This document shows positions 1 to 37,652 of a stretch of 37,652 nt of DNA, piece by piece. Both the position numbers and the translations under genes were made by a program. The DNA is from a virus, in the IMG/VR virus record IMGVR_UViG_3300009481_000002, positions 1 to 37,652 of that record; one strand, 5' to 3'. How positions within the stretch are numbered: the stretch's first letter is position 1; every line of letters begins with the position of its first letter. The notes below the pieces were generated by a model. The model was not told where the DNA came from, did no database searches, and worked only from the letters and a program-made list of their open reading frames with translations.

Positions 1-123
1 ACACCTTTATAAACAAACGCAGGATTTTCTATAGCTAGCCCAGCCCACCTGCCAATAACTTCTTGCCACGCATTAAAGAACGGCGACATAAAACCAACCA
101 TTTCAGCAAATTCGCTGTGTTCA
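1..123. repeat. Terminal duplication copy 1. It is identical to 37530-37652 and marks a circular assembly overlap.
   Basis: Base-by-base comparison: acacctttataaacaaacgc...ttcgctgtgttca occurs at both window ends (123 nt). The repeat lies inside an open reading frame. Confidence 0.95.
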
Positions 124-3100: not shown

Positions 3101-4835
3101 CAGCACGCCTAGTTTTAAGAATACGCCGACGAGTATCATCTACAGATTCAATACCACCTTCAAACGAATCAGAAATTCTACGTGCTTGTTGTATTTCAAC
3201 AGGCAAAACTTCTGTAGAAATTAATTCACGTTTTTCTTGTAACTTTTCAATCCTATTTCTTAACGTAGATATTTTACCGTTAGTACCGTCAATACGTTTT
3301 CTTGCCCTAGTTATATCACGATCAACGTCATCTAATAATTTAATTCTTTTACCATAATCACTATCTATTAAAACAGCGCCAGCTTGCCTAATAACTTCTG
3401 CTATTTCACCCTTAACAGTTGTATCGCCTAAATACTCACGCAAAATTCTTTGAGCAGCAAGTTTACTAGGAGCAGTAGCTAACGCTGTCTGCACACGCTC
3501 AGGTAATTTAGTATTATTTTTCCTACCAGCAGCTTGTCTCCAACGAACACCACGTTCATTAATTAATGTTTGGTCAGCGTCAGTAGAAACAATTTTACTA
3601 GACTTATACTGTGCAGAAAATTTATTATCAGGAACAGCGTCCATAACCGTATTCCACGTGTCATTAAACCATTTGCTTTCAGCCATACCTTTAGCTTGTT
3701 CAGTTGTAACAGTTTTACGCAACGCTAAATCTTGTTCAGTTAAATTATTAGGCTTATTAAACCGATCTTTGACTTTAGAAACCATCCCTTGAGGAGGCGT
3801 TAAACTATCTGGTTTTTGAATCGCTGACGTTGTTATATCTTTATCGTAAACAATTTTACGAACATTGCCAGTTCCTTCAACAACCCATATTTTATTAGGC
3901 ATAGCTTGACGAACTGGTATAAACGGAACACCATAATCATATATTCTTACAAGATCTCCAGCGTCGTTTAACTTAACTATTGCCGTTTCACCACGTGATA
4001 TGTTTTTAGTTCCTCTAATAGCTCTTTCTAAAGGATCTTTCCATTCTTTAATTAAATCTGCTGTACCTGAAATAACAGTAAATAAATCGTTTGTTTTAAT
4101 AGCGTTATAAGCTTCTTCATCAAATGGATCTATTGCATATAAACCAGTAGCTAACGCTTGACCTGCTGAACGTTCTTGAACCCATGCAACATCGTATGCT
4201 TGTTTCCATTCGTTAGCGTCAAATAAAACACTGTACGTATTGTAATCAAGCAAATTTAAAGGGTTATTTCCTGCTGCGTCTTGCACTCTATTTATCATCG
4301 TAAATGTCATTGACAATGGATTATCTACTAAATTATTAAAAGCCCAATGCAAACCTTCTACGCCTTCTTGAACAGCAGGTCTTGTAACATCACGTATTTC
4401 TTCTGGAACTAAACCAAAAGTACCGCCACCTAAACCTTTAGAGGCAAACAATCCATAGCCAGATCCCATGCCTTCATTCTCAGGGTCAAGAGGTAAACCT
4501 AAGATATCACGTGCTATGTCTTCTCTACCGTATTGAATTATTGCAGCCAACGGATCTTCCCAAAGAGCTACCCTGTCGCCATTACCAAAAATTTGTCTTC
4601 CACTATCAAATAAAAGGTTTTTACCTATTACAACAACTGTGCCTCCAGCGCCACGAAAAAGATTAGTAGTGGCTACAAAAGGTCTAAGCGTTTGAGTAAC
4701 AGCACGTTCAGGTTGAAACAATGCCCCATAAATAGGAACACTTTTTGCTGCTTCTTGTATCGGATCAGGAATAATCTTGTCAACAAGATCTTGTGCGTCG
4801 CCTGCTTTGTCTTTAAGATAATCGTACAAGCCCAC
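1..4835 (-). CDS. Giant virion-associated protein, N-terminal ~1,611 codons. It is one 2,129-aa ORF that continues at 37529 down to 35975. Function is unknown; it is a putative internal or ejection protein.
   Basis: Manual reverse-complement translation from GTG 4835-4833 (first start after in-frame TAG at 4845-4847) reaches base 1 with no stop. The frame matches the ATG at 99-101 (= 37628-37630), since 4835-101 = 3x1578. The track lists no minus ORF here because the frame never closes inside the window. A long coiled-coil-like K/E/R-rich segment is encoded around 2990-3320. Confidence 0.8.
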   Translation of the reverse strand, partial: MGLYDYLKDKAGDAQDLVDKIIPDPIQEAAKSVPIYGALFQPERAVTQTLRPFVATTNLFRGAGGTVVVIGKNLLFDSGRQIFGNGDRVALWEDPLAAIIQYGREDIARDILGLPLDPENEGMGSGYGLFASKGLGGGTFGLVPEEIRDVTRPAVQEGVEGLHWAFNNLVDNPLSMTFTMINRVQDAAGNNPLNLLDYNTYSVLFDANEWKQAYDVAWVQERSAGQALATGLYAIDPFDEEAYNAIKTNDLFTVISGTADLIKEWKDPLERAIRGTKNISRGETAIVKLNDAGDLVRIYDYGVPFIPVRQAMPNKIWVVEGTGNVRKIVYDKDITTSAIQKPDSLTPPQGMVSKVKDRFNKPNNLTEQDLALRKTVTTEQAKGMAESKWFNDTWNTVMDAVPDNKFSAQYKSSKIVSTDADQTLINERGVRWRQAAGRKNNTKLPERVQTALATAPSKLAAQRILREYLGDTTVKGEIAEVIRQAGAVLIDSDYGKRIKLLDDVDRDITRARKRIDGTNGKISTLRNRIEKLQEKRELISTEVLPVEIQQARRISDSFEGGIESVDDTRRRILKTRRAANTREINALKQEIEDLKVERVKDENFVREESVRNDALEAELKIEGQVFNDVHWEYHFDFYNQIKVSQQKKVTLDANGDVSLPKSQVDEWDNLDRITAQIVVDKIVEDALLADNIVKSVGNRKIYQPIGVVHRNHLNKVKETTGNKFTSNHDTVVTTFDKAYSNPSVFLPLGIKALKIFTSRVPQGLIHFTDLGGQSTVMFERVIEDASEFVIGGKRLLSEKEAVEILGKWNEYVFKGEDYSTFVEFYTATMSKLVYRAEGMMRKQDIKIYDDTGALVDIPKDYLVKQLNGAQKDFLNRLDNKEFKPIDMSETKYTVDETGMRGKRIYDEDGQLVTERKAYTEEHTYTNVPVNEGIHTYTYNLSLAQLAECSIIPRFDLLQREINRSMNRTDYFGGGKRGTQKEGKLVNLKRSKYAKAVPVAAKGLQEVWTAGKLLTPRWTVRVLTDEKLRAAAVMGVLPMLGTLNKGFNRWVQNMQARGLNLTDEGFSVALRNELNKNFAKSKDVPKVSNDATLIDIVKFVEERGLNLEAVMDSASARYIEDALKAKEKATKISPSRRKGLGITARALVGGMVNPLLGAGWGFRYWKNRTKNLQKYAVKSSAAQLANAFQIDAARIIGEAADDITVIELAERLSSSGDQLLKDLAWLEDEYNFGLSWADKDKVVSLFDQADMWWEKAGYPRQTIGNATFGNAWGSDLRFQRMSQRQLSSANSLDTSMRGPVAAAKRQINENIGEGWEIVDVLKEGVTASQMRTAWTRTYMQMSRTGTKEIQFYNIMYNDSLSHVQKVEAIATLIENTPRLQRKYQIKGYEGKGADRKIFKEIAEDAIDEVNDFLPPEYFPDLRAKVRAGEEISWDDVKSTLTDPEFIARHGFDGSKANEIIAQIRVKDNSSRGGFGKARDSISQPSAKQEGFIKWTRDLIDKTFQNLGTGAADDISRGPFFESRYRTHLIDSAAPYAKADGTYDLTPADIVRMEDEARKAAFKDTREVMYELAEHSEFAEMVGFMSPFFNAWQEVIGRWAGLAIENPAFVYKG

Positions 4836-4836
4836 G

Positions 4837-5205
4837 TTACGAACCTAGTTCTTCTATAGGTCCAATCGCTACACGCATCTCACGAACTATTTGCCTCAAC
4901 TCTGGTGAAGCATCTCGTTGAGAAGCCATTTTTTCTAAAACAGGCAATGAAGTCAACATTTGAAATTTACGTGTTGCCGATATTGGCCTACTCGCAGGTC
5001 TTGTCGATTGAGAAGTTAACACAGATTCGTTGCGTCGTTCTGTCGGCCTATTAAAAGGAACTTCACCAGCTTTCATAGCAACTCTAGGAGGTTCTTCCAT
5101 CCGTGGCAAAGGAACAACAGCTTGCGCTTCACGTTGCTCTTTAACTTTACCATACTGTTGGTCAGCAACAGTTTGTATTTTTTGTCCTTTACCTTTTCTA
5201 GGCAT
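4837..5205 (-). CDS. Hypothetical protein (122 aa) between portal and giant ORF
   Basis: Track ORF. Its ATG overlaps the portal stop as TAATG (5203-5207). Its own stop lies 1 nt before the giant ORF GTG. Confidence 0.6.
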   Translation of the reverse strand: MPRKGKGQKIQTVADQQYGKVKEQREAQAVVPLPRMEEPPRVAMKAGEVPFNRPTERRNESVLTSQSTRPASRPISATRKFQMLTSLPVLEKMASQRDASPELRQIVREMRVAIGPIEELGS

Positions 5206-6974
5206 TACAACGCTCCTAACAACTCACGCAAACCGCCAGCCCCACCTTGAGCAGGAGGAGGTGGACTAGCCATTGCCTCTGCTCCTGCTCCGGCTTGGGC
5301 TATACCAGCTTGTGCTTCAGGGGATGTAGGCGAAACCATTGTGGCTTGCCTTTCTTGCGCTTCACGCTGTACTTTTTCGACAGCTTCAGCAAGTTCAGCT
5401 TTATCTGATTTAACAAGATCAATAATTCGAGCAAGATCAGAAGGCGGTATCGCCCCTCCTGCTGCTTGTTGCTGCAAACTAGCAAGCAAACTTCCTTCTA
5501 ATTGTTCCGCAGTAACAGAATCAAGTTCAGCTTCAACATCCTCAACAAGAGGATCTATTTTCATAAACGATTCTTTCGACATTGTACCCATAGCCAAACG
5601 TTGACCGCCAGCGATAACAAGGTTGTTAATATCAGCGCCAGCCTGACTGTACGAAACAACGTTGTCGTCGGTTGTAAAATGTTTGTTGGGGACATAATCT
5701 ACCTTGCCTTTTACTTTATTCATAGAAACATAAAACGATTTAGATTTATTGCCAGCATACGATTTAGCCATAGCAATAGCTACTTTATTTTCTGCTTCTA
5801 AAGAACGAGCAAGTATTTTTTGAGATTCTTGCACAGCAAAATCAACAACCGCAGAAAGCACAGCGTCGCCACGGCGACCAGTACGAATATTGCTAGTAGA
5901 TTCTCCACCAAATTCGGCAGGCACACCAGCAGTTAAACGCTGCGCCCTTTCTAAACGATCAATTGCAGGGTTAGTCATAAACCCTACATTTAATTGCATA
6001 TCTTTTAAATCACCGCCACGAATAACACCAACTTCTCCAGTTAAACCATTCGCAGGGTTAACAATATTTGGTTGCTCACCAGCACGGCCAACAAGCCACG
6101 TATCAGGAAAAATACCTTTCTGGACGGCTATCACTTCCAACGCCATAAGTTTTGCCTGTTGTTGATACATCCCAAGAATGCCATCAAACTGGCCGTTAGG
6201 TTGATCTAAAGAAATACGTTCTGCCATAATGACAGGACATACGCCTGTAGGGTTATGTGTTCGTTCTAACTCAGCAACAACAGGCCCAGTATCATTATTA
6301 CGTGAATACATGCCAACGCTATTAGCTGGATGCCGGACCGCTACAAGCACATACTCTTCATGGTCCACATACTCAATAAGTTCAATTGGTTTATCATTAT
6401 CTAACGGAGCGTTAGAAACGCCAGCAAACCGCAAAGCAGCTTCAGGATAAGATTTTCTAACCCAACCATACGAACGTTCATACCCAAACACGCAATCAGA
6501 AGGAGTCATATTATCAGCGCCACGTAAATTAGACGGATACGCTGTCAACGGGTCACGAACATGCCACGTCGGACATCCTTTTTCTTGATTAAAACGTATT
6601 TGAACAATAGTGTTAGAATATCCAATTAAATGACGTGCCCTTTTAGCTAGTTGCATGTCAATTCTTGAGTTCTGCCACCAACCAAACAACGCTTTACGAC
6701 GAATCGCAGAATATTTCTGAGCTTGTTTAGATGTTTCATCTTCAGGAGGGCAAATAATATCAGGAGTAACCGACGCTATACGCATAGCAGTTTGATCTAA
6801 ACCCTGCGCCAACAAATTAGCTACAGCAGAAGATTCTGTCGTATCTATTTCAGGAAGCGGAACAATAACATCGCCATTGTAATGATCACGTATATGCCGC
6901 ATTTTTTCTTTTACACCAGCATTATTAGATGAACGGGTGTAGTACAGGTCTACAATTTCTTCTGCTGTTTTCAA
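5205..6974 (-). CDS. Putative portal protein (589 aa)
   Basis: Size and position immediately downstream of TerL. The C-terminal tail is A/G/P-rich and low in complexity. The start is TTG at 6974 with no clear SD; the alternative ATG at 6902 is possible. Confidence 0.55.
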   Translation of the reverse strand: MKTAEEIVDLYYTRSSNNAGVKEKMRHIRDHYNGDVIVPLPEIDTTESSAVANLLAQGLDQTAMRIASVTPDIICPPEDETSKQAQKYSAIRRKALFGWWQNSRIDMQLAKRARHLIGYSNTIVQIRFNQEKGCPTWHVRDPLTAYPSNLRGADNMTPSDCVFGYERSYGWVRKSYPEAALRFAGVSNAPLDNDKPIELIEYVDHEEYVLVAVRHPANSVGMYSRNNDTGPVVAELERTHNPTGVCPVIMAERISLDQPNGQFDGILGMYQQQAKLMALEVIAVQKGIFPDTWLVGRAGEQPNIVNPANGLTGEVGVIRGGDLKDMQLNVGFMTNPAIDRLERAQRLTAGVPAEFGGESTSNIRTGRRGDAVLSAVVDFAVQESQKILARSLEAENKVAIAMAKSYAGNKSKSFYVSMNKVKGKVDYVPNKHFTTDDNVVSYSQAGADINNLVIAGGQRLAMGTMSKESFMKIDPLVEDVEAELDSVTAEQLEGSLLASLQQQAAGGAIPPSDLARIIDLVKSDKAELAEAVEKVQREAQERQATMVSPTSPEAQAGIAQAGAGAEAMASPPPPAQGGAGGLRELLGAL

Positions 6975-14639: not shown

Positions 14640-14870
14640 ATGGACTGGAGAGAGAAAGCTGGCTGTCGTGGCATGACTACGATATTCTATTCGGACCAGC
14701 ATCGTAAGTGTAGATTCATTTGCGATTCTTGTCCTGTGTTTGAACAGTGTATTGCTACGTCTGTTGAGGATGAGCCAGACCCTTTCCAACTCTGGGGTTT
14801 CAGACATGGGATGACTGCATCAGAGCGTCATCGTTGGCGTATGATGAAGGCCCGACTTGACAGCGTGTGA
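14640..14870 (+). CDS. whiB: WhiB-family Fe-S transcription factor (76 aa)
   Basis: It has four Cys in the WhiB pattern (AGCRG ... C-DS-C-PVFEQ-C), an LWGFRHG turn resembling G[VI]WGG, and a basic C-terminal tail. Confidence 0.8.
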   Translation: MDWREKAGCRGMTTIFYSDQHRKCRFICDSCPVFEQCIATSVEDEPDPFQLWGFRHGMTASERHRWRMMKARLDSV

Positions 14871-18291: not shown

Positions 18292-18659
18292 GCAAAGCAC
18301 GACAAAAAGGTACTGTCGGAGAGAACATTATCCGTGATCTCTTGATAGAGTGGGGTCACCAAGACGTTAAACGTACTTCGGCTTCCACTGAATCCCATGA
18401 CATCTGGTTGGGGGGTAGTGGCGTGACGGTGGAAGTCAAGTACCGCAAAGCATGGTCTTTGTTTAAATGGATAGCTCGCATACGTAACGTATCAGACGAC
18501 AACAAATGGGTTATCTTCGCTATACACGGGGACAGAAGGTCCACAGTAGGGAAACAAGTAGACAAGGTAGCAGTTATGGACGCTGACTTTGCAGCAGAAT
18601 TGTTATTGTTGTGGAGACACCAGTTAGATAAAGCTAGTGGTGTGACTCTAATGCCCTGA
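18288..18659 (+). CDS. Hjc-like PD-(D/E)XK endonuclease, a putative Holliday junction resolvase (123 aa)
   Basis: KGTVGENIIRDLL...HDIWL...VTVEVK matches the G-x-E / D / E-x-K order of archaeal-type resolvases. Confidence 0.55.
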   Translation: MSKARQKGTVGENIIRDLLIEWGHQDVKRTSASTESHDIWLGGSGVTVEVKYRKAWSLFKWIARIRNVSDDNKWVIFAIHGDRRSTVGKQVDKVAVMDADFAAELLLLWRHQLDKASGVTLMP

Positions 18660-18831
18660 TCCGCTGCTCATGGTCAGCTAACGTAGCTTCTACGTTATCC
18701 AAAAGAGCGTCACCTCTGGCTAAACGAATCTCAATCTTAATAAGTACGGTTGATACCCACGCCATCCACGGCAGCAAGCAACCAGTAAGTATCAAAAGAA
18801 ACAGGGCTTCTAAACTCACTCGTCTTTCCAA
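18634..18831 (-). CDS. Small membrane protein with an N-terminal TM and a C-terminal coiled-coil (65 aa)
   Basis: Track ORF. It has a ~25-residue hydrophobic stretch followed by RLARGDALLDNVEATLADHEQRIRALE. Its 3' end overlaps the convergent resolvase gene by 26 nt. Confidence 0.5.
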   Translation of the reverse strand: MERRVSLEALFLLILTGCLLPWMAWVSTVLIKIEIRLARGDALLDNVEATLADHEQRIRALESHH

Positions 18832-18998
18832 TCAATCCAAACACCTATCATGTGGCAAATGAACGACCCTACGGTAAGCCAGATACCGTACTCCCTAGTC
18901 TCACCAGACAATGTAATAAGCACAATGCCTGTTGAACCAGCAGTAAGAGACAAAGCAAAAATTTCCTTTGTTACTCTTTTAACTCTACGCTTTATCAT
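18816..18998 (-). CDS. Small two-TM membrane protein (60 aa from ATG 18998; the track gives GTG at 19031)
   Basis: Track ORF. It has a basic N-terminus followed by two hydrophobic segments. Confidence 0.45.
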   Translation of the reverse strand: MIKRRVKRVTKEIFALSLTAGSTGIVLITLSGETREYGIWLTVGSFICHMIGVWIDWKDE

Positions 18999-20709
18999 CT
19001 TTCGCTTTTCTCCTTGGCGCTTCGGGACCACTGGGAGCAGCAGCTTGCGGACTGCTAGGTCGAGGTGTAGGTGTAGGTGTAGGTCTTGGTGTCGGTGGAG
19101 GTGTAGGTCGAGGTGTAGGTCTAGCTACCGCTGCTCCAGTCGCTATTGTAGCAACCGTCGTGACAGCAATCACTACCCGACGATCCTCAACAGTAATCGT
19201 TGAATCCTCAGCGACGTAAGTTTCAAGACCCCCAGCGTACACGTTAACTTCTTCTTCTAACTCAGCTTTAACCTCGTCAGAAGCGTCATTAAATATTTCT
19301 GGAGCTGCCTCAAAAAGCTCCTCTACCTGTTCCTCAGATGCTTCCTCAAAAAACTCTTCGTTATCTTCTAAGATCTCTTCAAGAATTTCTTCAACGTTCT
19401 CTTCATCTTGTAATATTTCAAAAAGAATTTCGTCGTCCAACTCATCTATATCCAACTCCTCGAAATCAACTTCTTCAATGTCCTCAAATTCTTCAAGGAC
19501 AAATTCAATATCTTCTTCCTCTGATTCTAGAACATCTGCCTCATCCAAGTTGGCATCTTCTTCTTCGTCTCGCTCCACCAATTCTTCAAATTGTGGTTCA
19601 GGTTCATTAACCAGATCTTCAAATTCTTCTTCTTCAAATTCCAATTCATCTTCTTCAAACTCCTCGTCTATAAATTCTTCTTCTATTTCAGGTAACTCAT
19701 CAAAATCAAAATCGTAATCTTCCCAATCTACTTCCTCCAGATCAACCCAGATGCTATCATCATCGTATGGGTATCCTTCTTCTTCCTCTGGTTCTATTAT
19801 CAATACTGGTGGTTGCCACTCTTCTGGCTCTTGGGGTTCATATTCCAATTCTGGCAATTCTTCTGGTGGTGTGGGTAGTTCCTCTGGCTCTTCTGGGGTT
19901 GGCGGTAGTGTGGGTTGTGGTTCGGGCGAACTTTCAGGAGAAGGTTCGGGGACATCATCTTCGACAGTGGGAACAGGAGTGGGGTCGATTTGAGGACTAG
20001 GATCAGGTTCAGGCGTTGGCGTAGGCGTTGGCTCGACTTCTTCCTCAGACGTAGGCGTTGGCTCAGGTTCAAGAGTTGGTGTCGGCTCAGGTTCAGGCGT
20101 TGGCGTAGGCGTAGGAGTCGGCTCAACAGTAGGAGTTGGTTCAGGGGTTGGCGTAGGTTCTGGAGTAGGTGTCGGGTCAACAGTTGGAGTAGGCTCTGGT
20201 TCTGAACCATCTAAACTCCACGAACCGCCGGACAATTCCATTGTGTACGTTCCTATATGTTCGTCATCGTAAGCGTCAGCTCTAAGCTGATACGTACCTA
20301 TGTCTAGGGTGGGTGTTAATTGGCTATCCCAGCACATGTTACTCCCATCGTTATGAGGCGCAGAGTCGTCATCATCCGCAACCAGAGTCAATGTTCCTTC
20401 ACTATTAACGCTATATAACCAGATGTGAGGATCGGCAGCGTAGGCATGAGGCGCATTGTCCCAATCATCGCAGGTCATAGACGTAAAAGTAATAGCATTT
20501 ATCGGAGTTTGATCTTCAGTTATTTCCAACGTGAACGTAGGCCCAGCCTCAAATTCATTAACCCACACGGTGCAACGCAACAAATTATCTTCTTCATCCT
20601 CGACACAGGTCGTAACGTTCTGTTCTTGCGCTCCGACAGGCGAAATAAACGCCATGATAAGCATAGAAGCAAACAGTATTCGTGACAGCACAAAGAAAAA
20701 ACGGGCCAT
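18985..20709 (-). CDS. Secreted, C-terminally anchored protein (574 aa). In order it has a signal peptide, a Cys-containing globular domain, a PT-rich linker, a ~210-aa polyacidic region, a TM helix and a Pro/Arg-rich tail.
   Basis: The N-terminus is MARFFFVLSRILFASMLIMAFISPVGA-QEQ. Residues 169-300 are P/T/E repeats. Residues 301-510 hold about 102 D/E and only 3 K/R by hand count. RRVVIAVTTVATIATGAAVA is hydrophobic, and the tail runs RPTPRPTPPPTPRP...RRKAKDDKA. Confidence 0.7.
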   Translation of the reverse strand: MARFFFVLSRILFASMLIMAFISPVGAQEQNVTTCVEDEEDNLLRCTVWVNEFEAGPTFTLEITEDQTPINAITFTSMTCDDWDNAPHAYAADPHIWLYSVNSEGTLTLVADDDDSAPHNDGSNMCWDSQLTPTLDIGTYQLRADAYDDEHIGTYTMELSGGSWSLDGSEPEPTPTVDPTPTPEPTPTPEPTPTVEPTPTPTPTPEPEPTPTLEPEPTPTSEEEVEPTPTPTPEPDPSPQIDPTPVPTVEDDVPEPSPESSPEPQPTLPPTPEEPEELPTPPEELPELEYEPQEPEEWQPPVLIIEPEEEEGYPYDDDSIWVDLEEVDWEDYDFDFDELPEIEEEFIDEEFEEDELEFEEEEFEDLVNEPEPQFEELVERDEEEDANLDEADVLESEEEDIEFVLEEFEDIEEVDFEELDIDELDDEILFEILQDEENVEEILEEILEDNEEFFEEASEEQVEELFEAAPEIFNDASDEVKAELEEEVNVYAGGLETYVAEDSTITVEDRRVVIAVTTVATIATGAAVARPTPRPTPPPTPRPTPTPTPRPSSPQAAAPSGPEAPRRKAKDDKA

Positions 20710-27292: not shown

Positions 27293-27538
27293 CTATTCTT
27301 CTCCGTAAAGAATCTCCTCAGGCTGAGTCTTACGACCAACCAACGAGAACGAACTATCTCCAACTTTAGTAGCAGCCCAACCTTTAAGAACAGATAACAC
27401 GGCAGCAAAACCAGAAGCTACAACAAGTTTCCAGTTGCTTACGCCCATCTCAAGGAAGGAGTTACCACTGATCGTGGCTACTGCTGCTTGTACAAACGTC
27501 GCTCCGCAGCGTTCAAGTAAATCTAGATATTCTTTCAT
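27293..27538 (-). CDS. Holin, r1t-like (81 aa from ATG 27538)
   Basis: ERCGATFVQAAVATI...WKLVVASGFAAVLSVLKGWA resembles actinophage r1t-type holins. It shows an ATGA overlap with the endolysin stop. Confidence 0.65.
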   Translation of the reverse strand: MKEYLDLLERCGATFVQAAVATISGNSFLEMGVSNWKLVVASGFAAVLSVLKGWAATKVGDSSFSLVGRKTQPEEILYGEE

Positions 27539-28260
27539 TTTCTCAATAAAGCCTTCCAAGTATTAGGACCAACAATCCCATCAACATATAATAGACGACG
27601 CTTCTGAAACTCCACAACAGCCTTATGCGTAAGCCTTCCAAAATCTCCATCAACTTTGTACCGATACAACCCCTTATTACCAAGAAGCCCCTGAACTACC
27701 TTCACAGGCTGCCCCTTAGAACCCTTCTTCAATGGGTGTCGTCGAATCAAATCTTCTATCTCAGCTAACGCAGCGCCAATACCCTTAAGGTCTTGCTTAA
27801 CTTTTTTCTTAGCTTTCGTTCCCTTCAAAGCCGGAGCATCAAACCACTGAATCTTGCCCTTAACTACCTTGCAAGGTTGGTGATGCCACCACTCTCCTCT
27901 AACGTATGCAACCATACCATAAGATTTAGCTATAGCGTTCACTTGAGAAGTACTGATACCACGCCCAGTAATTCTAAAGTCAACGGCATAACCCCAACTA
28001 TCAAACGCTGGTTGCTGCATGTGATACGAACCCTGAAAACCTGACGCTGTTTTACGGTCAGGGTTAGCAGCTAAATTAAAACCTGCCCTGCCACTTTTGT
28101 ACCCGTCGTACAAGTATTTTTGTTGTGCGTAAGTACGCACAGCAGATACCACCTTGACACGGCCAGAAATTCTGTCGTCAGCAAAGAACGCTTCTAACCT
28201 GCGTTTAAACTCAGGGTGTAAAAGTTTAGTATTTATGCTACTGTTCGTCGTCGGTATCAT
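27535..28260 (-). CDS. Endolysin with a peptidase M15 (VanY-like) catalytic domain and a PG_binding_1 domain (241 aa)
   Basis: SAVRTYAQQ, SYHMQ...WGYAVDF and GEWWHH fit the zinc-peptidase M15 motifs. The C-terminal VQGLLGNKG...DGDFGRLTHKAVVEFQ...VDGIVGPNTWKAL fits a peptidoglycan-binding repeat. Confidence 0.75.
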   Translation of the reverse strand: MIPTTNSSINTKLLHPEFKRRLEAFFADDRISGRVKVVSAVRTYAQQKYLYDGYKSGRAGFNLAANPDRKTASGFQGSYHMQQPAFDSWGYAVDFRITGRGISTSQVNAIAKSYGMVAYVRGEWWHHQPCKVVKGKIQWFDAPALKGTKAKKKVKQDLKGIGAALAEIEDLIRRHPLKKGSKGQPVKVVQGLLGNKGLYRYKVDGDFGRLTHKAVVEFQKRRLLYVDGIVGPNTWKALLRK

Positions 28261-30081: not shown

Positions 30082-31020
30082 TTAGTTAGCGCCTATTGAG
30101 GATGAAGATTCAATCCTTCTGATGGATGCTTCACGGAATCGTGAGTACCCAACAAGGTGATACCAGCCAACGTGGTTGAAACGTCGGAGGAGATCAGTTG
30201 TAGGACCAAATACGACACTGGGGTCTTCACCAAATCCGGCTGCACGGCTAACGGCTTTTGCCATAGCTTGCTTACCACAGATAATGGTTTCATACTCGTC
30301 AACATTAGAATCACCAGCGTTTGTACCAATGTCCAAACGTGGGGTTTCAATGAAGTCAACACCACCATAAACACCAATGCTACCTGTTCGGATAGCGCCA
30401 GCGTCTTGCTGGTTTTGGTGTGCGATTACGTCAGTTACCGTAGTAGCATTTCGTAAATCGTAGGAAACGTCAGGGTGGATAAATCCAACGTAAACGCCTC
30501 CATCAAAAGTAGGTGCAGATGCAGCACGGGCATTAGCAACAGCTTTACGGACAAGAGCAGCGGTCATAATATCGCCTGCTGCTAGTTCTCCTGTAGCTGT
30601 GGCATCGCCACCGTACAGCACGTTGCTTCCAGCGACAAGAATACCGTGAACGATATTGTCGAGGCTGTTGGCCATGTTGTAACCGATAATGTTCGCAGCG
30701 TCAGCGTCTACGTTTAAGAAGCTGGTTCCACGAAGTTTAGCGGTTGTGGTGACAGCGTTACCATATTCAGCAAGAGTTACAGTAACCGTTGAATCACCAA
30801 GCGCAACAGCAGTTACGTCACTGGTTTCAGTGAGAGCTGATGTAGCTTGAGAAAGGTCACTATAAATGTTGAATTGGACGCTAGCACCTGCATGAGACTG
30901 GTTGGTTGACTTTACGTCACATACCATCTCAAACATAGGTTGTGAACGGAGAGCAAAGTACGCCAACTGCTCAAATGCAGCGGTGTCTGAACTAACCGAA
31001 CTTGCTTGTGTATATGCCAT
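30082..31020 (-). CDS. Major capsid protein (312 aa, HK97-fold type inferred)
   Basis: It lies directly after the scaffold gene and is followed by a strong terminator. The N-terminal pattern AFEQLAYFALRSQPMFEMV...GASVQF resembles N4-gp56-type capsid proteins. Confidence 0.7.
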   Translation of the reverse strand: MAYTQASSVSSDTAAFEQLAYFALRSQPMFEMVCDVKSTNQSHAGASVQFNIYSDLSQATSALTETSDVTAVALGDSTVTVTLAEYGNAVTTTAKLRGTSFLNVDADAANIIGYNMANSLDNIVHGILVAGSNVLYGGDATATGELAAGDIMTAALVRKAVANARAASAPTFDGGVYVGFIHPDVSYDLRNATTVTDVIAHQNQQDAGAIRTGSIGVYGGVDFIETPRLDIGTNAGDSNVDEYETIICGKQAMAKAVSRAAGFGEDPSVVFGPTTDLLRRFNHVGWYHLVGYSRFREASIRRIESSSSIGAN

Positions 31021-32692: not shown

Positions 32693-34807
32693 TTAAACCC
32701 TCCCAAACGAATCAGCTAAAGCATCAACAAGACTATATATCTTTTCTTGCCCTTTATTACTACCTAAATAATCTCCAGTAGAGCGCACATAATTTTCTGC
32801 TTCCCAAGTAGTCATCAATCTAGGGCTACCTGAATTATCAACATAATTTATAACCGGATTCCATTTACTATCACGCAAATCAACTTTCTTACCTAACAAA
32901 TTCTCAATAGATGTTTCAGTATTAAAAAGTAACTGCTTAGGAGTTACCCCTAATTTTGTAGCTTGCTCTTCTAAATGCGGATAAGCAATATACGCTTGAT
33001 CCTGCAACATTTGTTTAAATTCTTCTTGAGTTAAATCACCAGTAAGCAACTGCTCTGCATATTCTCTAGCTTGTTCTTCATTCATATTTAAATAATAATC
33101 GCCAGCAGTTACTAAAGTATTTTCTACCATTCCTTGAAATTCATTTAACTCATTAACCATTTCTTTATTTTCAATTTCAGCAAAAATAGTTTTATACAAC
33201 GTATCAGTATTTGTTTGTGTAACAGGGCCATTTAATCTTTGAAACTGATAAGCTAAATTATAAACTTCTTGGTCAGATAACTCATACCCAAGACCTCTAA
33301 GGCTATCGCTCACTTGATCTATAGTCGCTTGCAAAAATTCTAAACGATCTGCCTCACTCTTCTTTTGATACTCAACATCGAACTCACGCATACGTGAATT
33401 ATTTTCCATACCCCATTCAGTTTTACGCAACAAACTCGGAATTTGGTACAGCATAGCGTTTTCAGTAGTCGGGTCTATATTAGTTGATTCTATATAAGTA
33501 ACAACGTCTACTTCTGTTAATTTTGAAGGATCGTTATATGCAACAGGGTTACCATTAATATCAAGCCCTATATATAAATCACCTCTTATGTCACGGTCAT
33601 ACATAAAGAAACCAAACGCACCGTATTGTTCACTTAAACCAGTTGCATCTCCTAACGTATCCGCAAAAGATGGAATCCCTAAAAACGGTCCGCTACCACT
33701 CAAAGTTGTTTCTTGAGCAGGTTGAGCTTGCGTCCCAGAAGAACGTAAAGAACCATCTGCCATAAATGCCCTAGACGACATGCGGTTTTGTTGGCCAGTA
33801 CCTTGATTGCGAGATCTAGTAGCTCCAACATAACCCGTGTCTTTAGGAAGAGCAGCGCTACCACCTTGGAACGGATCGCCCATACCAAATTCTCTTAACG
33901 TGCCAGTAGCTGCGTGTGCAGCAACCTCTTTACTTCTTCCAGTTCTTATAAGATTAGCTTCATCATTTCGCCTGCCATACAAAGCACCGCCATCATTAGA
34001 AGCTAAACCATATTCTGTATTATCAATATAATCAGCTAACGCTAAAACATCGCCAGTATCTACAGCTTTATTAATTTCTTTAACAAAATCTGGGCCACCA
34101 GCAGAACCATAATTATACGTAATTGACATAACCGCAGCTTGCGTATTCGCATCTAAAGACTGATACCTTTCTTGCCCAGCAGCTAACAACTCTTCTCTAT
34201 TCTCAAACCCATAAATAGTTACATGGCCATATTGATCTAATTCAACATACGGTTCAGCAGCACCTGAAGGCAACGGAGCGTATTTTTCACCATCAGCCTC
34301 CGAACTAATAAAATCATACTGCCAACCATCACCAAACCTATTAATATAATCTTGATCGCTACTACCTTTACGCAAACTAGCGGTATTCAATGCAAGTTCA
34401 GCAAATAAAATTTCTCTATGTTTTTCAATTTCTTGATCTAAACGAGCAAGAGCTGTTTCTTTATCCATAGTGTCGCCCATTTGAACGCCACCAGTAAACC
34501 CAAACCCTATAGTCGGCACATCATCGCCACGCAAAGGATCTGAATAAGCATTTTCACGGAACCCTTCATGCGCCATAATTACCGCACGTTCTAACTCTAT
34601 ATTTTGATTACGTGAATCACGCAACTCATTTTCAACTCTTCTTTGAGAATCCAACGTAGCTTTTTCCGCATCAAACGACCTAATCAACTCAAGCGCAAAC
34701 TTATAATCTCCGTCAGTTTCAGCTAAATTTTCAAACTTATTCCAATCAATATTAGGAATAGCCATAGTGCCTCCCATCAGCAACACTACTAACCAACGCA
34801 AAAACAT
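32693..34807 (-). CDS. Internal virion protein with a lysozyme-like (GH24-type) domain (704 aa; the alternative start ATG 34765 follows GGGAGG)
   Basis: AHEGFRENAYSDPLRGDDVPTIGFGFTGG fits the E-G...AY-D...TIG-G signature of phage lysozymes. YGRRNDEANLI lies near the end of the domain. Confidence 0.6.
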   Translation of the reverse strand: MFLRWLVVLLMGGTMAIPNIDWNKFENLAETDGDYKFALELIRSFDAEKATLDSQRRVENELRDSRNQNIELERAVIMAHEGFRENAYSDPLRGDDVPTIGFGFTGGVQMGDTMDKETALARLDQEIEKHREILFAELALNTASLRKGSSDQDYINRFGDGWQYDFISSEADGEKYAPLPSGAAEPYVELDQYGHVTIYGFENREELLAAGQERYQSLDANTQAAVMSITYNYGSAGGPDFVKEINKAVDTGDVLALADYIDNTEYGLASNDGGALYGRRNDEANLIRTGRSKEVAAHAATGTLREFGMGDPFQGGSAALPKDTGYVGATRSRNQGTGQQNRMSSRAFMADGSLRSSGTQAQPAQETTLSGSGPFLGIPSFADTLGDATGLSEQYGAFGFFMYDRDIRGDLYIGLDINGNPVAYNDPSKLTEVDVVTYIESTNIDPTTENAMLYQIPSLLRKTEWGMENNSRMREFDVEYQKKSEADRLEFLQATIDQVSDSLRGLGYELSDQEVYNLAYQFQRLNGPVTQTNTDTLYKTIFAEIENKEMVNELNEFQGMVENTLVTAGDYYLNMNEEQAREYAEQLLTGDLTQEEFKQMLQDQAYIAYPHLEEQATKLGVTPKQLLFNTETSIENLLGKKVDLRDSKWNPVINYVDNSGSPRLMTTWEAENYVRSTGDYLGSNKGQEKIYSLVDALADSFGRV

Positions 34808-35974: not shown

Positions 35975-37652
35975 CTAGTCTGCCCAACTGTTCTTGGGAA
36001 TAAGATCATTCTCTAAAAACCTTGAATAGAACAAAGCAAAATCTGGCCTAGTAGCAAACTCAGATCTAACTTGATCCCACTCATACATTAATAATCTATT
36101 GTTATCAGCTTCCAAAGAACTACTAGGCAACCTTCTCAAATCATTTTCAAAATCGTTCCGAATATCTAAATACTCTACAAGGCTACCAATCCAAGGCTTA
36201 TACGCTAACGACGGTTCTTCAACCAAAGCCCTAGCGCCTTCCATTACCTCAGCAATATAATTAGAAGAACTAAATTCTTCAATCGCTTCACCAAACAACG
36301 GATATTTTTCACTAAGTTCTGCTTTTTTGAGATCATAATATAGCTTTAAACCAGAATGAACAGCAGCAGAAGGCGAATTACTTAACCCATCATTAGCATA
36401 CAACAACTGATTATAAGACGGGCTTCCTTCTACACCATCTATTGGGCTATCTTTCCAAGCGTTTAATTCAGTATATCCACGTGACACTTCTGTCTGTTTA
36501 ATAAATTCTTCAGGCGTATAAATTTCACGCCATCCTTCATTCATAAAAATTTGTTGAACAGCCGGTGAAAACGCCCCATCTTCAATAGCGCTGACACGCA
36601 AAGAATTAGTTACAACAGAAGTCATTACAGGATATTTTTCTATAAAATCTTTATGTTTTTGAGATAATTTAAACGACTCTATTGTCGGAGCAACACCTTT
36701 AGCATTTCTAGTTGCGTTACCGCTTAGAAAGAAAAACTCTTCGCCGTAAAGATTAAGGAATTGGTTAACAGCCCATTCAGGTTCTAAACCTAAAGCTCTA
36801 CCATGTTCTTCTAATTGATTTAATTTTATAATATACGGTTCATACGGAGAACCTTCAGCAGAAGCTACAGGTATTACAGTAGTTGCAAGAAACTTTAAGA
36901 ACCCGACACTTTGTGTCATTTCTTCAGCTTTAGCTATAACGTTACTTTGTACTTCAGGGTCAGTGTAGTCGTAAGGAGTTCCTGCTTCTCTAGCTTTAAC
37001 GTCAAGGTAAGTCACCATATCAATCATGGTCAATCCGTAGTTTTGTTTATTGCCGTAACGGAAAGGGTTATCTGGATCTAACGCTGTGTAGTATAAATGA
37101 TCGGCCCATGACGGAGTAAATTCTTGAACAAAACGTTCAACAAAGTTTCCATCTGGGTGGCCGAATGGGAACATCCATCCAGCAACTTTTTCTATTTCAG
37201 GTTTTTTAAAATCAAACATAAACGTTCGTAAAGGCAACGTAATAAACGGGCCAGCACTAGGAGTTGTTTTAGTTAACATCGTAAACAACCCATCTTTATC
37301 TAACTTAATTCCAACCTCGTCAACAAGCTCACCGACACTACCAATAGGAGAACTAGGCAACACCTGATTAGCAGCGTCACTAATACTATTAGTAAATTTA
37401 GGATTAACTAACAACGATGCAAGAGCGCTATCTTTAGGTCTAAACACAACATTTAAATTTCCGTATTGATCTTCTTCTTGTGTTAACCCTAGGATCGGCA
37501 ATTCAACATCATCTTTAGTAAACAACCGAACACCTTTATAAACAAACGCAGGATTTTCTATAGCTAGCCCAGCCCACCTGCCAATAACTTCTTGCCACGC
37601 ATTAAAGAACGGCGACATAAAACCAACCATTTCAGCAAATTCGCTGTGTTCA
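35975..37652 (-). CDS. Giant virion-associated protein, C-terminal part. It is the same ORF as 1..4835, and 37530-37652 duplicates 1-123.
   Basis: The track ORF 35975..37630 stays open upstream to the window end (EHSEFAEMVGFMSPFF...). The full ORF is 6,390 nt, or 2,129 aa, in the circular genome. Confidence 0.8.
   Translation of the reverse strand, partial: EHSEFAEMVGFMSPFFNAWQEVIGRWAGLAIENPAFVYKGVRLFTKDDVELPILGLTQEEDQYGNLNVVFRPKDSALASLLVNPKFTNSISDAANQVLPSSPIGSVGELVDEVGIKLDKDGLFTMLTKTTPSAGPFITLPLRTFMFDFKKPEIEKVAGWMFPFGHPDGNFVERFVQEFTPSWADHLYYTALDPDNPFRYGNKQNYGLTMIDMVTYLDVKAREAGTPYDYTDPEVQSNVIAKAEEMTQSVGFLKFLATTVIPVASAEGSPYEPYIIKLNQLEEHGRALGLEPEWAVNQFLNLYGEEFFFLSGNATRNAKGVAPTIESFKLSQKHKDFIEKYPVMTSVVTNSLRVSAIEDGAFSPAVQQIFMNEGWREIYTPEEFIKQTEVSRGYTELNAWKDSPIDGVEGSPSYNQLLYANDGLSNSPSAAVHSGLKLYYDLKKAELSEKYPLFGEAIEEFSSSNYIAEVMEGARALVEEPSLAYKPWIGSLVEYLDIRNDFENDLRRLPSSSLEADNNRLLMYEWDQVRSEFATRPDFALFYSRFLENDLIPKNSWAD
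37530..37652. repeat. Terminal duplication copy 2. It is identical to 1-123.
   Basis: Same 123-nt string as the window start. This implies a unit genome of 37,529 bp. Confidence 0.95.

Follow-up and report, generated by a model that had tools for sequence, protein, structure and literature searches.

An exported acidic stalk protein with a C-terminal membrane anchor and a coupled two-TM partner in a probable actinophage, and its possible role in lysis

The acidic gene and the parts of its product

The window (i.e. the whole stretch of 37,652 nucleotides that was analysed, IMG/VR record IMGVR_UViG_3300009481_000002) is a complete, WhiB-encoding phage of 37.5 kb, most likely an actinophage. Its WhiB gene and the LPXTG-type proteins of related phages back the actinobacterial host that had been guessed in the initial annotation. 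A search with the MCP gave matches of only ~ 40% identity, to phages of Streptomyces, Vibrio and Bacillus, which do not discriminate between hosts. The acidic gene sits at the end of the late arm (late operon), as had been noted earlier, and is translationally coupled to two small downstream membrane ORFs, both of which are real. The endolysin-holin pair of the phage lies 8.7 kb away. The features are as follows.

18985..20709, minus strand: whole acidic gene, encoding an exported, C-terminally anchored acidic stalk protein of 574 aa (ORF listing, composition, hydropathy, orthologues, selection)
20629..20709, minus strand: signal peptide, residues 1-27, MARFFFVLSR / ILFASMLIMAFI / SPVGA, followed by QEQ (hydropathy; n-h-c layout common to all orthologues)
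20206..20628, minus strand: head, residues 28-168, predicted all-beta sandwich of PPC/DVUA0089 type with 4 conserved Cys (NF038127, AF2, Foldseek)
19810..20205, minus strand: Pro/Thr/Glu spacer, residues 169-300, indel-rich, with tandem DNA repeats (composition, TRF, orthologue lengths, dN/dS)
19390..19809, minus strand: variable polyacidic region, residues 301-440, with the conserved motif DELPEIEE (composition, alignment)
19180..19389, minus strand: conserved juxtamembrane module, residues 441-510 (…PEIFNDASDEVKAELEEEVNVYAGGLETYVAEDSTITVEDRR), predicted helical repeats and then a loop (phmmer, alignment, AF2, dN/dS)
19123..19179, minus strand: TM helix, residues 511-529 (RVVIAVTTVATIATGAAVA) (Kyte-Doolittle peak 1.74; AF2)
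18988..19122, minus strand: cytoplasmic tail, residues 530-574, Pro/Arg-rich, net positive, predicted disordered (composition, AF2)
18816..18998, minus strand: partner gene, two-TM protein of 60 aa (MIKRRVKRVTKE…LITLSGET…), phrog_29041 (ORF listing, PHROG, adjacency)
18634..18831, minus strand: third small gene, 61-65 aa, one N-terminal TM segment and a C-terminal helix (ORF listing)
27293..27559, minus strand: r1t-family holin of the window phage (PF16945, E 4.8e-7)
27535..28260, minus strand: endolysin with a PG_binding_1 domain, pI 10.2, no signal sequence (domain match, composition)

The acidic gene, which starts with an ATG preceded 5 nt upstream by AGG and ends with a TAG stop at 18985-18987, is a genuine conserved phage gene under purifying selection. 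Intact orthologues of 495-574 aa with the same architecture are present in all 15 of the complete loci (on IMG/VR contigs), and the possibility that the ORF is disrupted in most related genomes, which had been named as grounds for refutation, therefore falls away; in locus L001 a homologue at 51% identity is split by an assembly frameshift. Compared with close relatives, dN/dS amounts to 0.01-0.08 in the juxtamembrane module, 0.06-0.07 in the head and 0.18-0.31 in the linker and the mid-acidic part. Its D/E content of 29%, versus 5-22% in the other window ORFs, sets the protein apart in composition from the rest of the genome, and a halophile-type acidic proteome was rejected as the source of its acidity because the other window proteins are ordinary in composition. 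The full protein fell into no family of Pfam or PHROGs, and neither tblastn with the full protein nor megablast with 20 kb of the window gave a match against 50,697 phage genomes. The head domain found one weak, partial match in 185,579 species genomes, and hence nothing points to a gene of the host or to one that is widespread in prophages.

The six-part architecture that had been proposed from the sequence is borne out by the ORF listing, composition, hydropathy and alignment. Only two hydrophobic segments are present (residues 1-29 and 510-531), which agrees with the proposed export and C-terminal anchoring, and the acidic protein is a Sec-exported type-I membrane protein with its N-terminus outside and its C-terminus inside. 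Signal-peptide cleavage is expected between SPVGA and QEQ; the signal peptide has neither a lipobox nor a Tat signal, and its cleavage region contains no Cys.

The head (residues 28-168) contains four Cys, three of which are invariant while the fourth is kept except in one truncated fragment, as well as the strongly conserved motif FTSMTCDDWDNAPHAYAADP. Residues 59-162 match NCBIfam NF038127 with 32.2 bits (cutoff 29; E 1.2e-7), and the head gave no match to Pfam PF04151 at E<=1. In the AF2 model (pLDDT 79.8) ten strands form an all-beta sandwich, in keeping with the Cys-containing beta-rich domain that had been foreseen, and Foldseek relates this model to binding-type jelly-rolls and to phage tail/RBP domains with TM scores of 0.35-0.55; the best PDB matches, i.e. 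the InhA2 C-domain, C-CPE and CBM6, reach a TM score of only 0.4-0.55. Profile and model together identify the head as a predicted PPC/DVUA0089-type domain. The label "lectin-like", as used for the heads below, derives from Pfam names and a moderate-confidence model and should be read as putative.

The spacer between head and stalk (residues 169-300: 49 P, 24 T and 35 D/E) is encoded by DNA with TRF arrays at 20012-20199, and short tandem DNA repeats with a period of 6-36 are found in the PT- and tail-coding parts. Among the orthologues it is mostly the linker (85-133 aa) and, next to it, the acidic part (195-236 aa) that differ in length, as had been anticipated from the repeats. In residues 301-510 there are 102 D/E and 3 K/R, which exactly reproduces the counts of the initial annotation. 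However, the polyacidic block is not of uniform low complexity: its final ~ 70-90 residues are conserved and predicted to form an alpha-helical module, which a short loop connects to the TM helix. The AF2 model places helical repeats across residues ~ 400-488, with a pLDDT of 75-93 in the juxtamembrane module, a lower one of 54-77 at residues 381-440, and one of about 90 for the membrane helix at residues 507-528. The tail (residues 530-574) has 9 K/R and 3 D/E, and in fused members of the family its position is occupied by a loop leading to a two-TM unit.

The C-module family and its small membrane partners

An exhaustive phmmer search with the last ~ 70 stalk residues and the TM helix (the C-module) gave matches in 154 representative clusters (at 50% identity), always at the C-terminus of the protein; a word-indexed protein search with the same query gave 5 matches only, and the exhaustive search was used instead. 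The alignment of the module (A2) contains one invariant R and near-invariant K, E, Y, S, V and R. The heads, on the other hand, vary across the family and include PA14, SUEL lectin, LCCL, L-type lectin, beta-helix and PPC-like domains, with clear PPC-like heads also in P0066, P0059, P0083 and P0041, and thrombospondin-type Ca-binding repeats in P0032. The acidic protein belongs to a large, unannotated, modular phage family in which the head is interchangeable, while the juxtamembrane module and the TM helix are constant. Extreme acidity was quantified within the PPC-head clade only, and the members with other heads that were read have T-rich linkers and helical repeats of milder acidity. It is therefore unlikely that charge itself is the conserved function of the family, to which the polyacidic trait may be secondary; the coat of negative charge on the infected cell that had been proposed in the initial annotation is conjectural.

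The family is present in phage genomes from 37 to 139 kb, of very different types. Outside IMG/VR, all nine contexts examined were phage-like and none was on a contig of more than 200 kb; in seven of them a WhiB, capsid, tail or endolysin gene was called, and most carry WhiB. The metagenome-assembled phage DSL-LC01 is the sole match of C-module and partner among the 50,697 phage genomes, and its gene is annotated as "hypothetical protein"; in this set tblastn and sequence searches of C-module and partner revealed no similarity to characterised lysis proteins. A PDB sequence search with the C-module profile gave nothing significant. Annotation pipelines at present overlook this family of anchors. 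The repeat-coding part of the acidic gene is a site of assembly breaks and frameshifts, because of which the database entries for the family are mostly shortened gene calls.

Every complete anchor gene has a two-TM partner gene directly 3'. In the window, the partner shares the last 14 nt of the acidic gene, with its ATG located 11 nt ahead of the stop of the acidic gene, and it is preceded by AAGGAG; it is homologous across lineages as phrog_29041. A scan for the partner itself, by a degenerate DNA pattern built from its motif and thus independent of the anchor, found the anchor adjacent in 90 loci and fused in 17, i.e. in 107 of the 110 informative loci, and a two-TM gene without an adjacent anchor in L090 and L042. 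Fusions of anchor and two-TM protein also occur in P0050, P0075, P0093 and DSL-LC01 (WJZ48438.1). Whether adjacent or fused, the anchor and the two-TM protein would thus form a three-TM unit. Neither the partner nor the acidic protein matches PF16945 (Phage_r1t holin), and the partner and the r1t holins form disjoint jackhmmer sets. The option that the C-terminus (motif, hydrophobic segment, RRR) is a cleavable sorting signal is less likely, because the partner, at ~ 58 aa, is too small for an enzyme, and because those 17 loci encode it as a fusion at the downstream end of the anchor.

The third small gene has a possible GTG start at 18819, which would give a GTGA overlap with the stop of the two-TM gene, and its homologues come after the two-TM gene in 23 related loci. 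Its layout is like that of phrog_32850, the one-TM proteins encoded beside the endolysin of large relatives, although homology with these proteins was not detected.

In contrast to the distance seen in the window, an endolysin, an r1t-type holin or a small one-TM gene lies within 3 kb in 108 of the 134 unique loci (81%), and within 300 bp in 83 of them. An r1t-family holin is found directly 3' of the two-TM partner in 40 related loci (jackhmmer link, adjacency counts), and in L027, L029, L033 and others the order is anchor, two-TM protein, VanY endolysin, one-TM coiled-coil protein and r1t-type holin. In large relatives, sugar-modifying enzymes and LPXTG surface proteins adjoin the anchor gene.

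Possible roles of the anchor and its partner

Accessory lysis factors that expose load-bearing envelope layers are known in three kinds, namely spanins (outer membrane), LysB (mycomembrane) and LysZ (lipoglycans). Since the pair usually adjoins an endolysin, an r1t-type holin or a small one-TM protein, it seems that the best, albeit tentative, explanation is that of a lysis or egress accessory which engages a host envelope polymer, in a manner analogous to LysZ but without being homologous to it. The earlier view that the acidic protein is not a typical lysis protein has become doubtful, as the C-module family is paired or fused with the two-TM protein and in most loci lies near endolysin, r1t-type holin or one-TM genes. 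Neighbourhood and fusion show that these genes act in concert, from which it does not follow that lysis is what they jointly do.

Mechanistically, the anchor and the two-TM protein would be located, as one membrane unit, with the holin machinery, from where the spacer and the stalk would bring the putative glycan-binding head into or across the wall. The head would then engage a host-specific envelope polymer, the presumed ligand, and the loosening, detachment or neutralisation of this polymer would be needed for efficient bursting and virion release, by analogy with LysZ of corynephages and mycobacteriophages, which defeats membrane-anchored lipoglycans. In the PPC-head clade, the polyacidic stalk may contribute cation sequestration or electrostatic repulsion.

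Alternatively, as had been suggested in the initial annotation, the protein might mask the surface of the infected cell (like Llp of phage T5 and Ltp of TP-J34), either because the head binds the receptor glycan of the phage or because the acidic brush shields the receptor, such that superinfection and the adsorption of progeny to infected cells or debris are blocked. This serious rival is somewhat unlikely in our view, even though the exported, surface-directed topology fits it, as do the binding-type heads, whose exchangeability would be expected when a variable receptor has to be tracked, and the resemblance of the head fold to tail/receptor-binding domains of phages of Gram-positive hosts. 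The sugar-modifying enzymes and LPXTG proteins beside the gene in large relatives moreover suggest a surface-remodelling module, and exclusion genes are known to cluster near lysis genes too. However, hmmsearch found no similarity between the head and the tail proteins of the window itself, as a receptor mimic might have shown, and no PADLOC-DB family was hit by the acidic protein, by either of its small neighbours or by two further members of the family. In addition, masking would start only late in infection, since the gene is part of a late operon and the screened window ORFs include no recognised integrase or repressor gene, and it leaves the two-TM partner, the fusions and the tight link with holin genes unaccounted for.

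In another reading, the ectodomain would sense an external or wall signal (adsorbed phages, wall state) and relay it via the three-TM unit to the holin, by which lysis would be delayed or triggered, comparable to the holin T and antiholin RI of phage T4 or to mycobacteriophages in which a one-TM regulator activates a two-TM protein. The small two-TM protein has a holin- or antiholin-like layout, an r1t-type holin lies directly 3' of it in 40 loci, and a model exists in the two-TM plus one-TM lysis regulators (PMC13056207; bioRxiv 10.64898/2026.08.27.747656). Such regulation from the outside is nevertheless improbable, considering that no homology to LysF1a/b, T or RI was found, that a long disordered spacer is a poor transmitter of signals, and that the cytoplasmic tail is variable and disordered; the diversity of the heads is equally compatible with the binding of structural glycans. 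Slightly less probable again is a moron that affects host behaviour and is not related to lysis, i.e. a phage adhesin through which infected cells would attach to other cells, algae or particles, or else a surface protein binding cations or nutrients. Lectin, PA14 and LCCL heads are typical of adhesins, and both the Ca-binding repeats of P0032 and the highly acidic stalk would suit this function, but the gene is located within late/lysis operons, is translationally coupled to small TM genes and is kept in phages of widely differing genome type, as would rarely be expected of a moron. That the ORF encodes a virion structural protein, or is a mere low-complexity artefact, is highly improbable: a signal peptide and a C-terminal TM helix are unexpected in a virion protein of a tailed phage, and an artefact is at odds with purifying selection in all regions, with 15 intact orthologues and with the fact that the other reading frames across the gene yield only short S/R-rich ORFs.

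Starting from the preferred explanation of a lysis or egress accessory, a more far-reaching and rather speculative reading, which we regard as unlikely, is that the anchor and the two-TM protein constitute a new class of lysis component in phages that infect Gram-positive actinobacteria. In this class, a three-TM unit with a swappable extracellular glycan-binding head would either make the triggering of the holin depend on how the outer envelope fares (i.e. outside-in timing of lysis), or mimic or antagonise membrane-anchored polyanionic glycopolymers, stripping cations or contacts at lysis. The variable heads would then reveal the mechanically important envelope polymers of uncultured aquatic Actinobacteria. 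If the preferred explanation holds, this widespread and unannotated gene pair, which comprises 154 clusters at 50% identity and is found on well over 100 IMG/VR contigs, would point to a further barrier or control step in phage release, with abundant and mostly uncultured Actinobacteria as the hosts, and the exchangeable lectin-type heads could serve as a catalogue of probes for host surface glycans.

Comparison with known systems

LysZ is a membrane-tethered protein with a helix and a Pro-rich linker, which is encoded in lysA-hol(r1t)-lysZ cassettes and overcomes LM/LAM (McKitterick, Lyerly & Bernhardt, bioRxiv 10.1101/2025.06.24.661397). It has an N-terminal disordered cytoplasmic domain and a single TM helix in N-in/C-out orientation, without a signal peptide; its target is a non-peptidoglycan, membrane-anchored glycopolymer barrier, and lysZ is often found beside the gene for LysY, another small multi-TM protein (bioRxiv 10.1101/2025.06.24.661397). 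Like LysZ, the acidic protein is single-pass and actinophage-encoded, and it combines a Pro-rich linker with an alpha-helical body that lies outside the cytoplasm. Its topology, however, is the opposite (N-out/C-in, with a signal peptide and a C-terminal anchor), the helical body and the Pro-rich linker occur in reversed order along the chain, and it carries an extra globular, lectin-like head as well as a polyacidic tract, both of which LysZ lacks. The partner of LysZ has four TM helices, whereas that of the acidic protein has two, and while lysZ adjoins the endolysin and an r1t-type holin, the acidic gene is 8.7 kb away from these in the window; in most relatives (108 of 134 loci) a lysis-type gene lies within 3 kb. 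The role in lysis has been demonstrated for LysZ, which is needed for it unless LM/LAM lipoglycans are lost and whose deletion leaves protoplast-like unlysed cells, while for the acidic protein we infer it.

In mycobacteriophages, pairs of two-TM and one-TM lysis regulators can be located far from the endolysin, as is the case for the LysF1/LysA2-type regulator genes of D29 (PMC13056207; bioRxiv 10.64898/2026.08.27.747656). In the pairs LysF1a/LysF1b and LysA2a/LysA2b, a small two-TM protein with both termini in the cytoplasm (N-in/C-in; about 60-90 aa and charged termini in the LysF1a type) precedes a small one-TM protein in N-out/C-in orientation, whose cytoplasmic C-terminus is helical, and the stop of the first gene overlaps the start of the second by 4 nt (PMC13056207; bioRxiv 10.64898/2026.08.27.747656). 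By inspection, the partner and the third gene of the window appear to share this layout, i.e. a two-TM gene and then a possibly overlapping one-TM gene away from the endolysin, although homology was not detected, and unlike in the window, no large exported protein is fused or coupled to the two-TM component of LysF1a/b or LysA2a/b.

The head scores above the curated cutoff of the PPC/DVUA0089 family (NF038127) and has an all-beta model, but it shows its own pattern of four Cys together with FTSMTCDDWDNAPHAYAADP. The usual context of PPC/DVUA0089 domains is a secreted protease or a PEP-CTERM protein, whereas here it is a phage membrane protein.

Llp of T5, Ltp of TP-J34 and Sie2009 of lactococci are small and either lipoproteins or anchored at the N-terminus, and as a rule they are produced early or by the prophage. 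The acidic protein resembles them in being phage-encoded and located outside the cytoplasmic membrane, where it could block receptors or DNA entry, but it is large, has no lipobox, belongs to a late operon and is linked to holin genes.

Lastly, the acidic protein shares with LPXTG substrates a signal peptide, a head, a Pro/Thr-rich spacer that could span the wall, and a C-terminal hydrophobic segment with basic residues, and in large relatives true LPXTG proteins, ending in LPVTG or LPKTG, adjoin members of the family. An LPXTG or LAXTG motif is nonetheless absent anywhere in the acidic protein, in which the sequence ahead of the TM helix reads …STITVEDRR. Different from LPXTG proteins, it has a conserved …VxVxxRR that abuts the helix, a long tail and a dedicated two-TM partner that is co-encoded or fused, and for these reasons stable membrane anchoring seems more likely than processing by sortase.

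Composition and selection of the acidic gene

18985..20709, minus strand: acidic (anchor) gene, ATG start, 574 aa
18816..18998, minus strand: two-TM partner, ATG at 18998 behind AAGGAG, overlapping the end of the acidic gene

The acidic gene is real and under selection. An IMG/VR scan returned 22 viral loci with the head domain, and wherever the gene is complete (15/15 loci) it is intact, with 495-574 aa and an identical layout; disruption in most relatives, which the initial annotation had named as refuting evidence, is not what is observed. Relative to close relatives, dN/dS is 0.01-0.08 for the juxtamembrane module, 0.06-0.07 for the head, and 0.18-0.31 for the linker and mid-acidic part. 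Tandem DNA repeats are found in the PT-coding and tail-coding segments. Orthologues differ in length chiefly across the linker and the acidic region, which bears out the length variation that had been predicted. A homologue at 51% identity on a 33.9-kb contig (L001) has the same parts, but a frameshift in its PT-coding repeats splits the gene. Assembly frameshifts or breaks within such repeats were seen at L001 2127-2137 and, in a second related locus, at L002 9629-9772. As a consequence of these frameshifts and breaks, protein databases hold mostly truncated calls for this gene (101-263 aa), which is why the family appears small in word-indexed searches.

Each of the composition figures in the initial annotation was reproduced by script, with 102 D/E and 3 K/R in the polyacidic block (residues 301-510). 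The linker (169-300) contains 49 Pro, 24 Thr and 35 D/E, and the head region (28-168) 4 Cys. Only two segments are hydrophobic (an N-terminal, signal-like one ending SPVGA|QEQ, and residues 510-531), and the tail has a positive net charge. With 29% D/E the protein is an outlier in its genome (5-22% in the other ORFs); the endolysin has a pI of 10.2.

The head appears to be a binding-type module. Residues 59-162 exceed the curated cutoff of NCBIfam NF038127 (DVUA0089 family), and the AlphaFold2 model (11 homologues as input) is an all-beta sandwich with a pLDDT of 79.8, consistent with the beta-rich domain proposed for residues 28-168. Foldseek matched it only to generic binding-type jelly-rolls in the PDB (InhA2 C-domain, C. 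perfringens enterotoxin C-terminal domain, CBM6, calpain domain III) and to tail and receptor-binding domains among viral models (TM scores 0.35-0.55); the putative binding role follows from these matches.

The C-terminal module and its two-TM partner

By sequence similarity, the C-terminal module defines a large family: residues 430-545, used as query in an exhaustive phmmer search (E<=1e-3), matched 154 representative clusters, in every one of which the match is C-terminal. Long members share a common plan of signal peptide, variable head(s), T- or PT-rich linker, acidic helical repeats, a conserved motif (…DEVKEEFEEEVNVFxGxFDxYVPxGSxIxVxxRR), hydrophobic helix and a G/S/P-rich tail with RRR at its end. 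In an AF2 model of residues 381-574 of the window protein, helical repeats are followed by a short loop and then by a TM helix modelled with confidence (507-528), and the tail is disordered. Among the heads are PA14, SUEL (rhamnose-binding) lectin, LCCL, L-type lectin, right-handed beta-helix and PPC-like domains, as well as thrombospondin-type Ca-binding repeats. One member from ENA contigs (P0032, 876 aa) combines a PPC-like head, an FN3-like domain and ~ten thrombospondin-type-3-like Ca-binding repeats (DxDxDGxxDxxE…DCDDDG) ahead of the anchor.

Genomic contexts from unrestricted assemblies were phage-like in 9/9 cases, none on a contig >200 kb, and in 7/9 WhiB, a capsid gene, Mtd-type fibre, tail-terminator, VanY endolysin or r1t holin was called. 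Among deposited phages only Actinomycetia phage DSL-LC01 carries the family, in a gene annotated as hypothetical protein. The databases gave no name for the family, the two-TM partner or the conserved module, and literature searches returned no description of the anchor family.

The pairing of anchor helix and two-TM partner, together with their repeated fusion, strongly indicates that the two form one membrane unit. The partner, which has a pair of TM helices joined to an invariant TLSG.T turn, directly follows the anchor wherever the anchor gene is complete, and its homologues, phrog_29041 (function unassigned), lie directly 3' of the anchor gene in widely different phages. In nine family members (P0050, P0075, P0093, P0066, P0067, P0143, P0144, P0156 and DSL-LC01 WJZ48438.1) it is fused to the anchor C-terminus, with a ~70-aa cytoplasmic loop in between. 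The pairing was tested independently by scanning IMG/VR for the partner motif itself, written as a degenerate pattern, which found a true partner in 118/119 new loci. The ORF immediately upstream holds the anchor module in 90, and in 17 anchor and partner share one ORF; a further 8 loci are truncated at an end, another has an intervening LPXTG protein and then stops, and only two are without an anchor. In these two (L090 6999-7181 and L042 683-877) glycosyltransferase- or methyltransferase-like genes and small ORFs lie upstream, and a lysin homologue 0.4-0.8 kb downstream.

The phage, its host and the lysis neighbourhood

30082-31020, minus strand: major capsid protein
minus strand: tail fibres
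27535-28260, minus strand: endolysin with PG_binding_1
27293-27559, minus strand: r1t-family holin
plus strand, early genes: Cas4-like exonuclease, SSB, RusA-like resolvase
14640-14870, plus strand: WhiB-like protein, 76 aa (PF02467, E 2.7e-8)

An exact terminal overlap of 123 bp (1-123 = 37530-37652) indicates a circularly assembled and apparently complete phage genome of 37,529 bp, with structural and lysis genes on the minus strand and early genes on the plus strand. A search of 50,697 deposited phage genomes gave no close relative. Evidence on the host comes mainly from WhiB, regarded as an actinophage indicator (PMC10202952), which together with a GC content of ~42% makes a low-GC actinobacterium the probable host. 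A giant minus-strand ORF (1-4844, at least 1614 aa at the left end) continues into 35975-37529 (minus strand), probably joining a "551-aa" ORF over the circular junction to a total of about 2,130 aa; its C-terminal part matches phrog_10618 (function unassigned in PHROGs), and the product may be an ejection protein or an internal protein of the virion. Among the structural genes, a 704-aa protein with a Phage_lysozyme domain (32693-34807, minus strand) is probably a virion-associated lysin, distinct from the endolysin.

In large relatives the order is sugar-modifying enzymes, anchor, optional LPXTG protein, two-TM gene, VanY endolysin, one-TM coiled-coil protein (phrog_32850) and r1t-type holin. 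Across 134 unique partner-carrying loci, a lysis-type gene (endolysin, r1t-family holin, one-TM coiled-coil gene or homologue of the window's 65-aa gene) lies within 3 kb in 108 and within 300 bp in 83, and an r1t-family holin is directly 3' of the partner in 40. All three are minimum counts, since many loci are truncated and the lysin seeds were VanY-type only. The window trio (anchor, two-TM, one-TM) closes the late operon, with 8.7 kb separating it from endolysin and holin.

Several further features of related loci were observed. L001 has two r1t-family holin-like genes (3641-3913 and 6497-6760), one directly 3' of the two-TM partner and the other adjoining a PG_binding_1 gene. Between anchor and two-TM gene, large related phages (L027 11647-12861, L031 11779-13125, L148 12107-13048) encode secreted proteins of 400-450 aa whose ends carry sortase signals: LPVTG or LPKTG, then a hydrophobic segment and a basic tail. 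That phages encode sortase substrates implies that the host is Gram-positive and has sortase. Immediately 5' of the anchor gene in large phages (L029 6017-9946, L033 7200-9936, L036 1670-3225) are sugar-modifying clusters including an NTP-transferase/HAD gene, methyltransferases, a GT2 glycosyltransferase and an epimerase/dehydratase, with possible roles in glycosylation of the T-rich linkers or in remodelling of surface glycans. Beyond the lysis region, on its downstream side, the large relatives have a conserved block in common (L027 18075-19000, L029 20201-22749, L031 18515-19446, L033 18799-19422), with a TrmB/MarR-like regulator, a ~400-aa protein, a faint proteasome-like protein and, in 3/4, WhiB; in some of them TauD or 2OG-Fe(II) oxygenases and a Macro domain are encoded as well.

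Possible roles and known lysis factors

The best-supported reading, still tentative, is that anchor protein and partner may act as a lysis or egress accessory. The three-TM unit (anchor plus two-TM partner) would then associate with the holin machinery, while the wall-spanning spacer would carry a glycan-binding head. Receptor masking, superinfection exclusion or a block on readsorption is a less probable role. As for the charge, extreme acidity was quantified in the PPC-head clade (the window protein and its orthologues) only, where the stalk has 44-49% D/E in all orthologues except one (37%, the result of a failed linker/acidic split) and the ectodomain a net charge of -125 to -186. Acidity is less extreme among those members with other heads that were read, and it is more likely that the strong negative charge is a clade-specific property of the stalk rather than the core function. 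An outside-in sensor of lysis timing seems unlikely, an adhesin or cation-binding moron marginally more so, and a virion protein or artefact highly improbable.

If the lysis role is true, the anchor-partner pair would be a new form within the already known class of accessory lysis factors; a protein sensing external signals or mimicking polyanionic lipoglycans would be more novel. The closest precedent for the lysis or egress reading is LysZ, a membrane protein of actinophages that has a helical body and Pro-rich linker. Its gene accompanies lysA and an r1t-family holin, and LysZ is required for getting past the LM/LAM lipoglycan barrier (bioRxiv 10.1101/2025.06.24.661397). Its topology is however opposite to that of the anchor protein. 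The LysF1a/LysF1b and LysA2a/LysA2b regulators are similar in layout and start/stop overlap to the window's small pair of two-TM and one-TM genes; in D29, genes of this type are dispersed in the genome (PMC13056207; bioRxiv 10.64898/2026.08.27.747656). Homology was not detected in any of these comparisons, and the likenesses to LysZ, LysF1a/b and LysA2a/b are best read as putative functional analogies, not as family membership.
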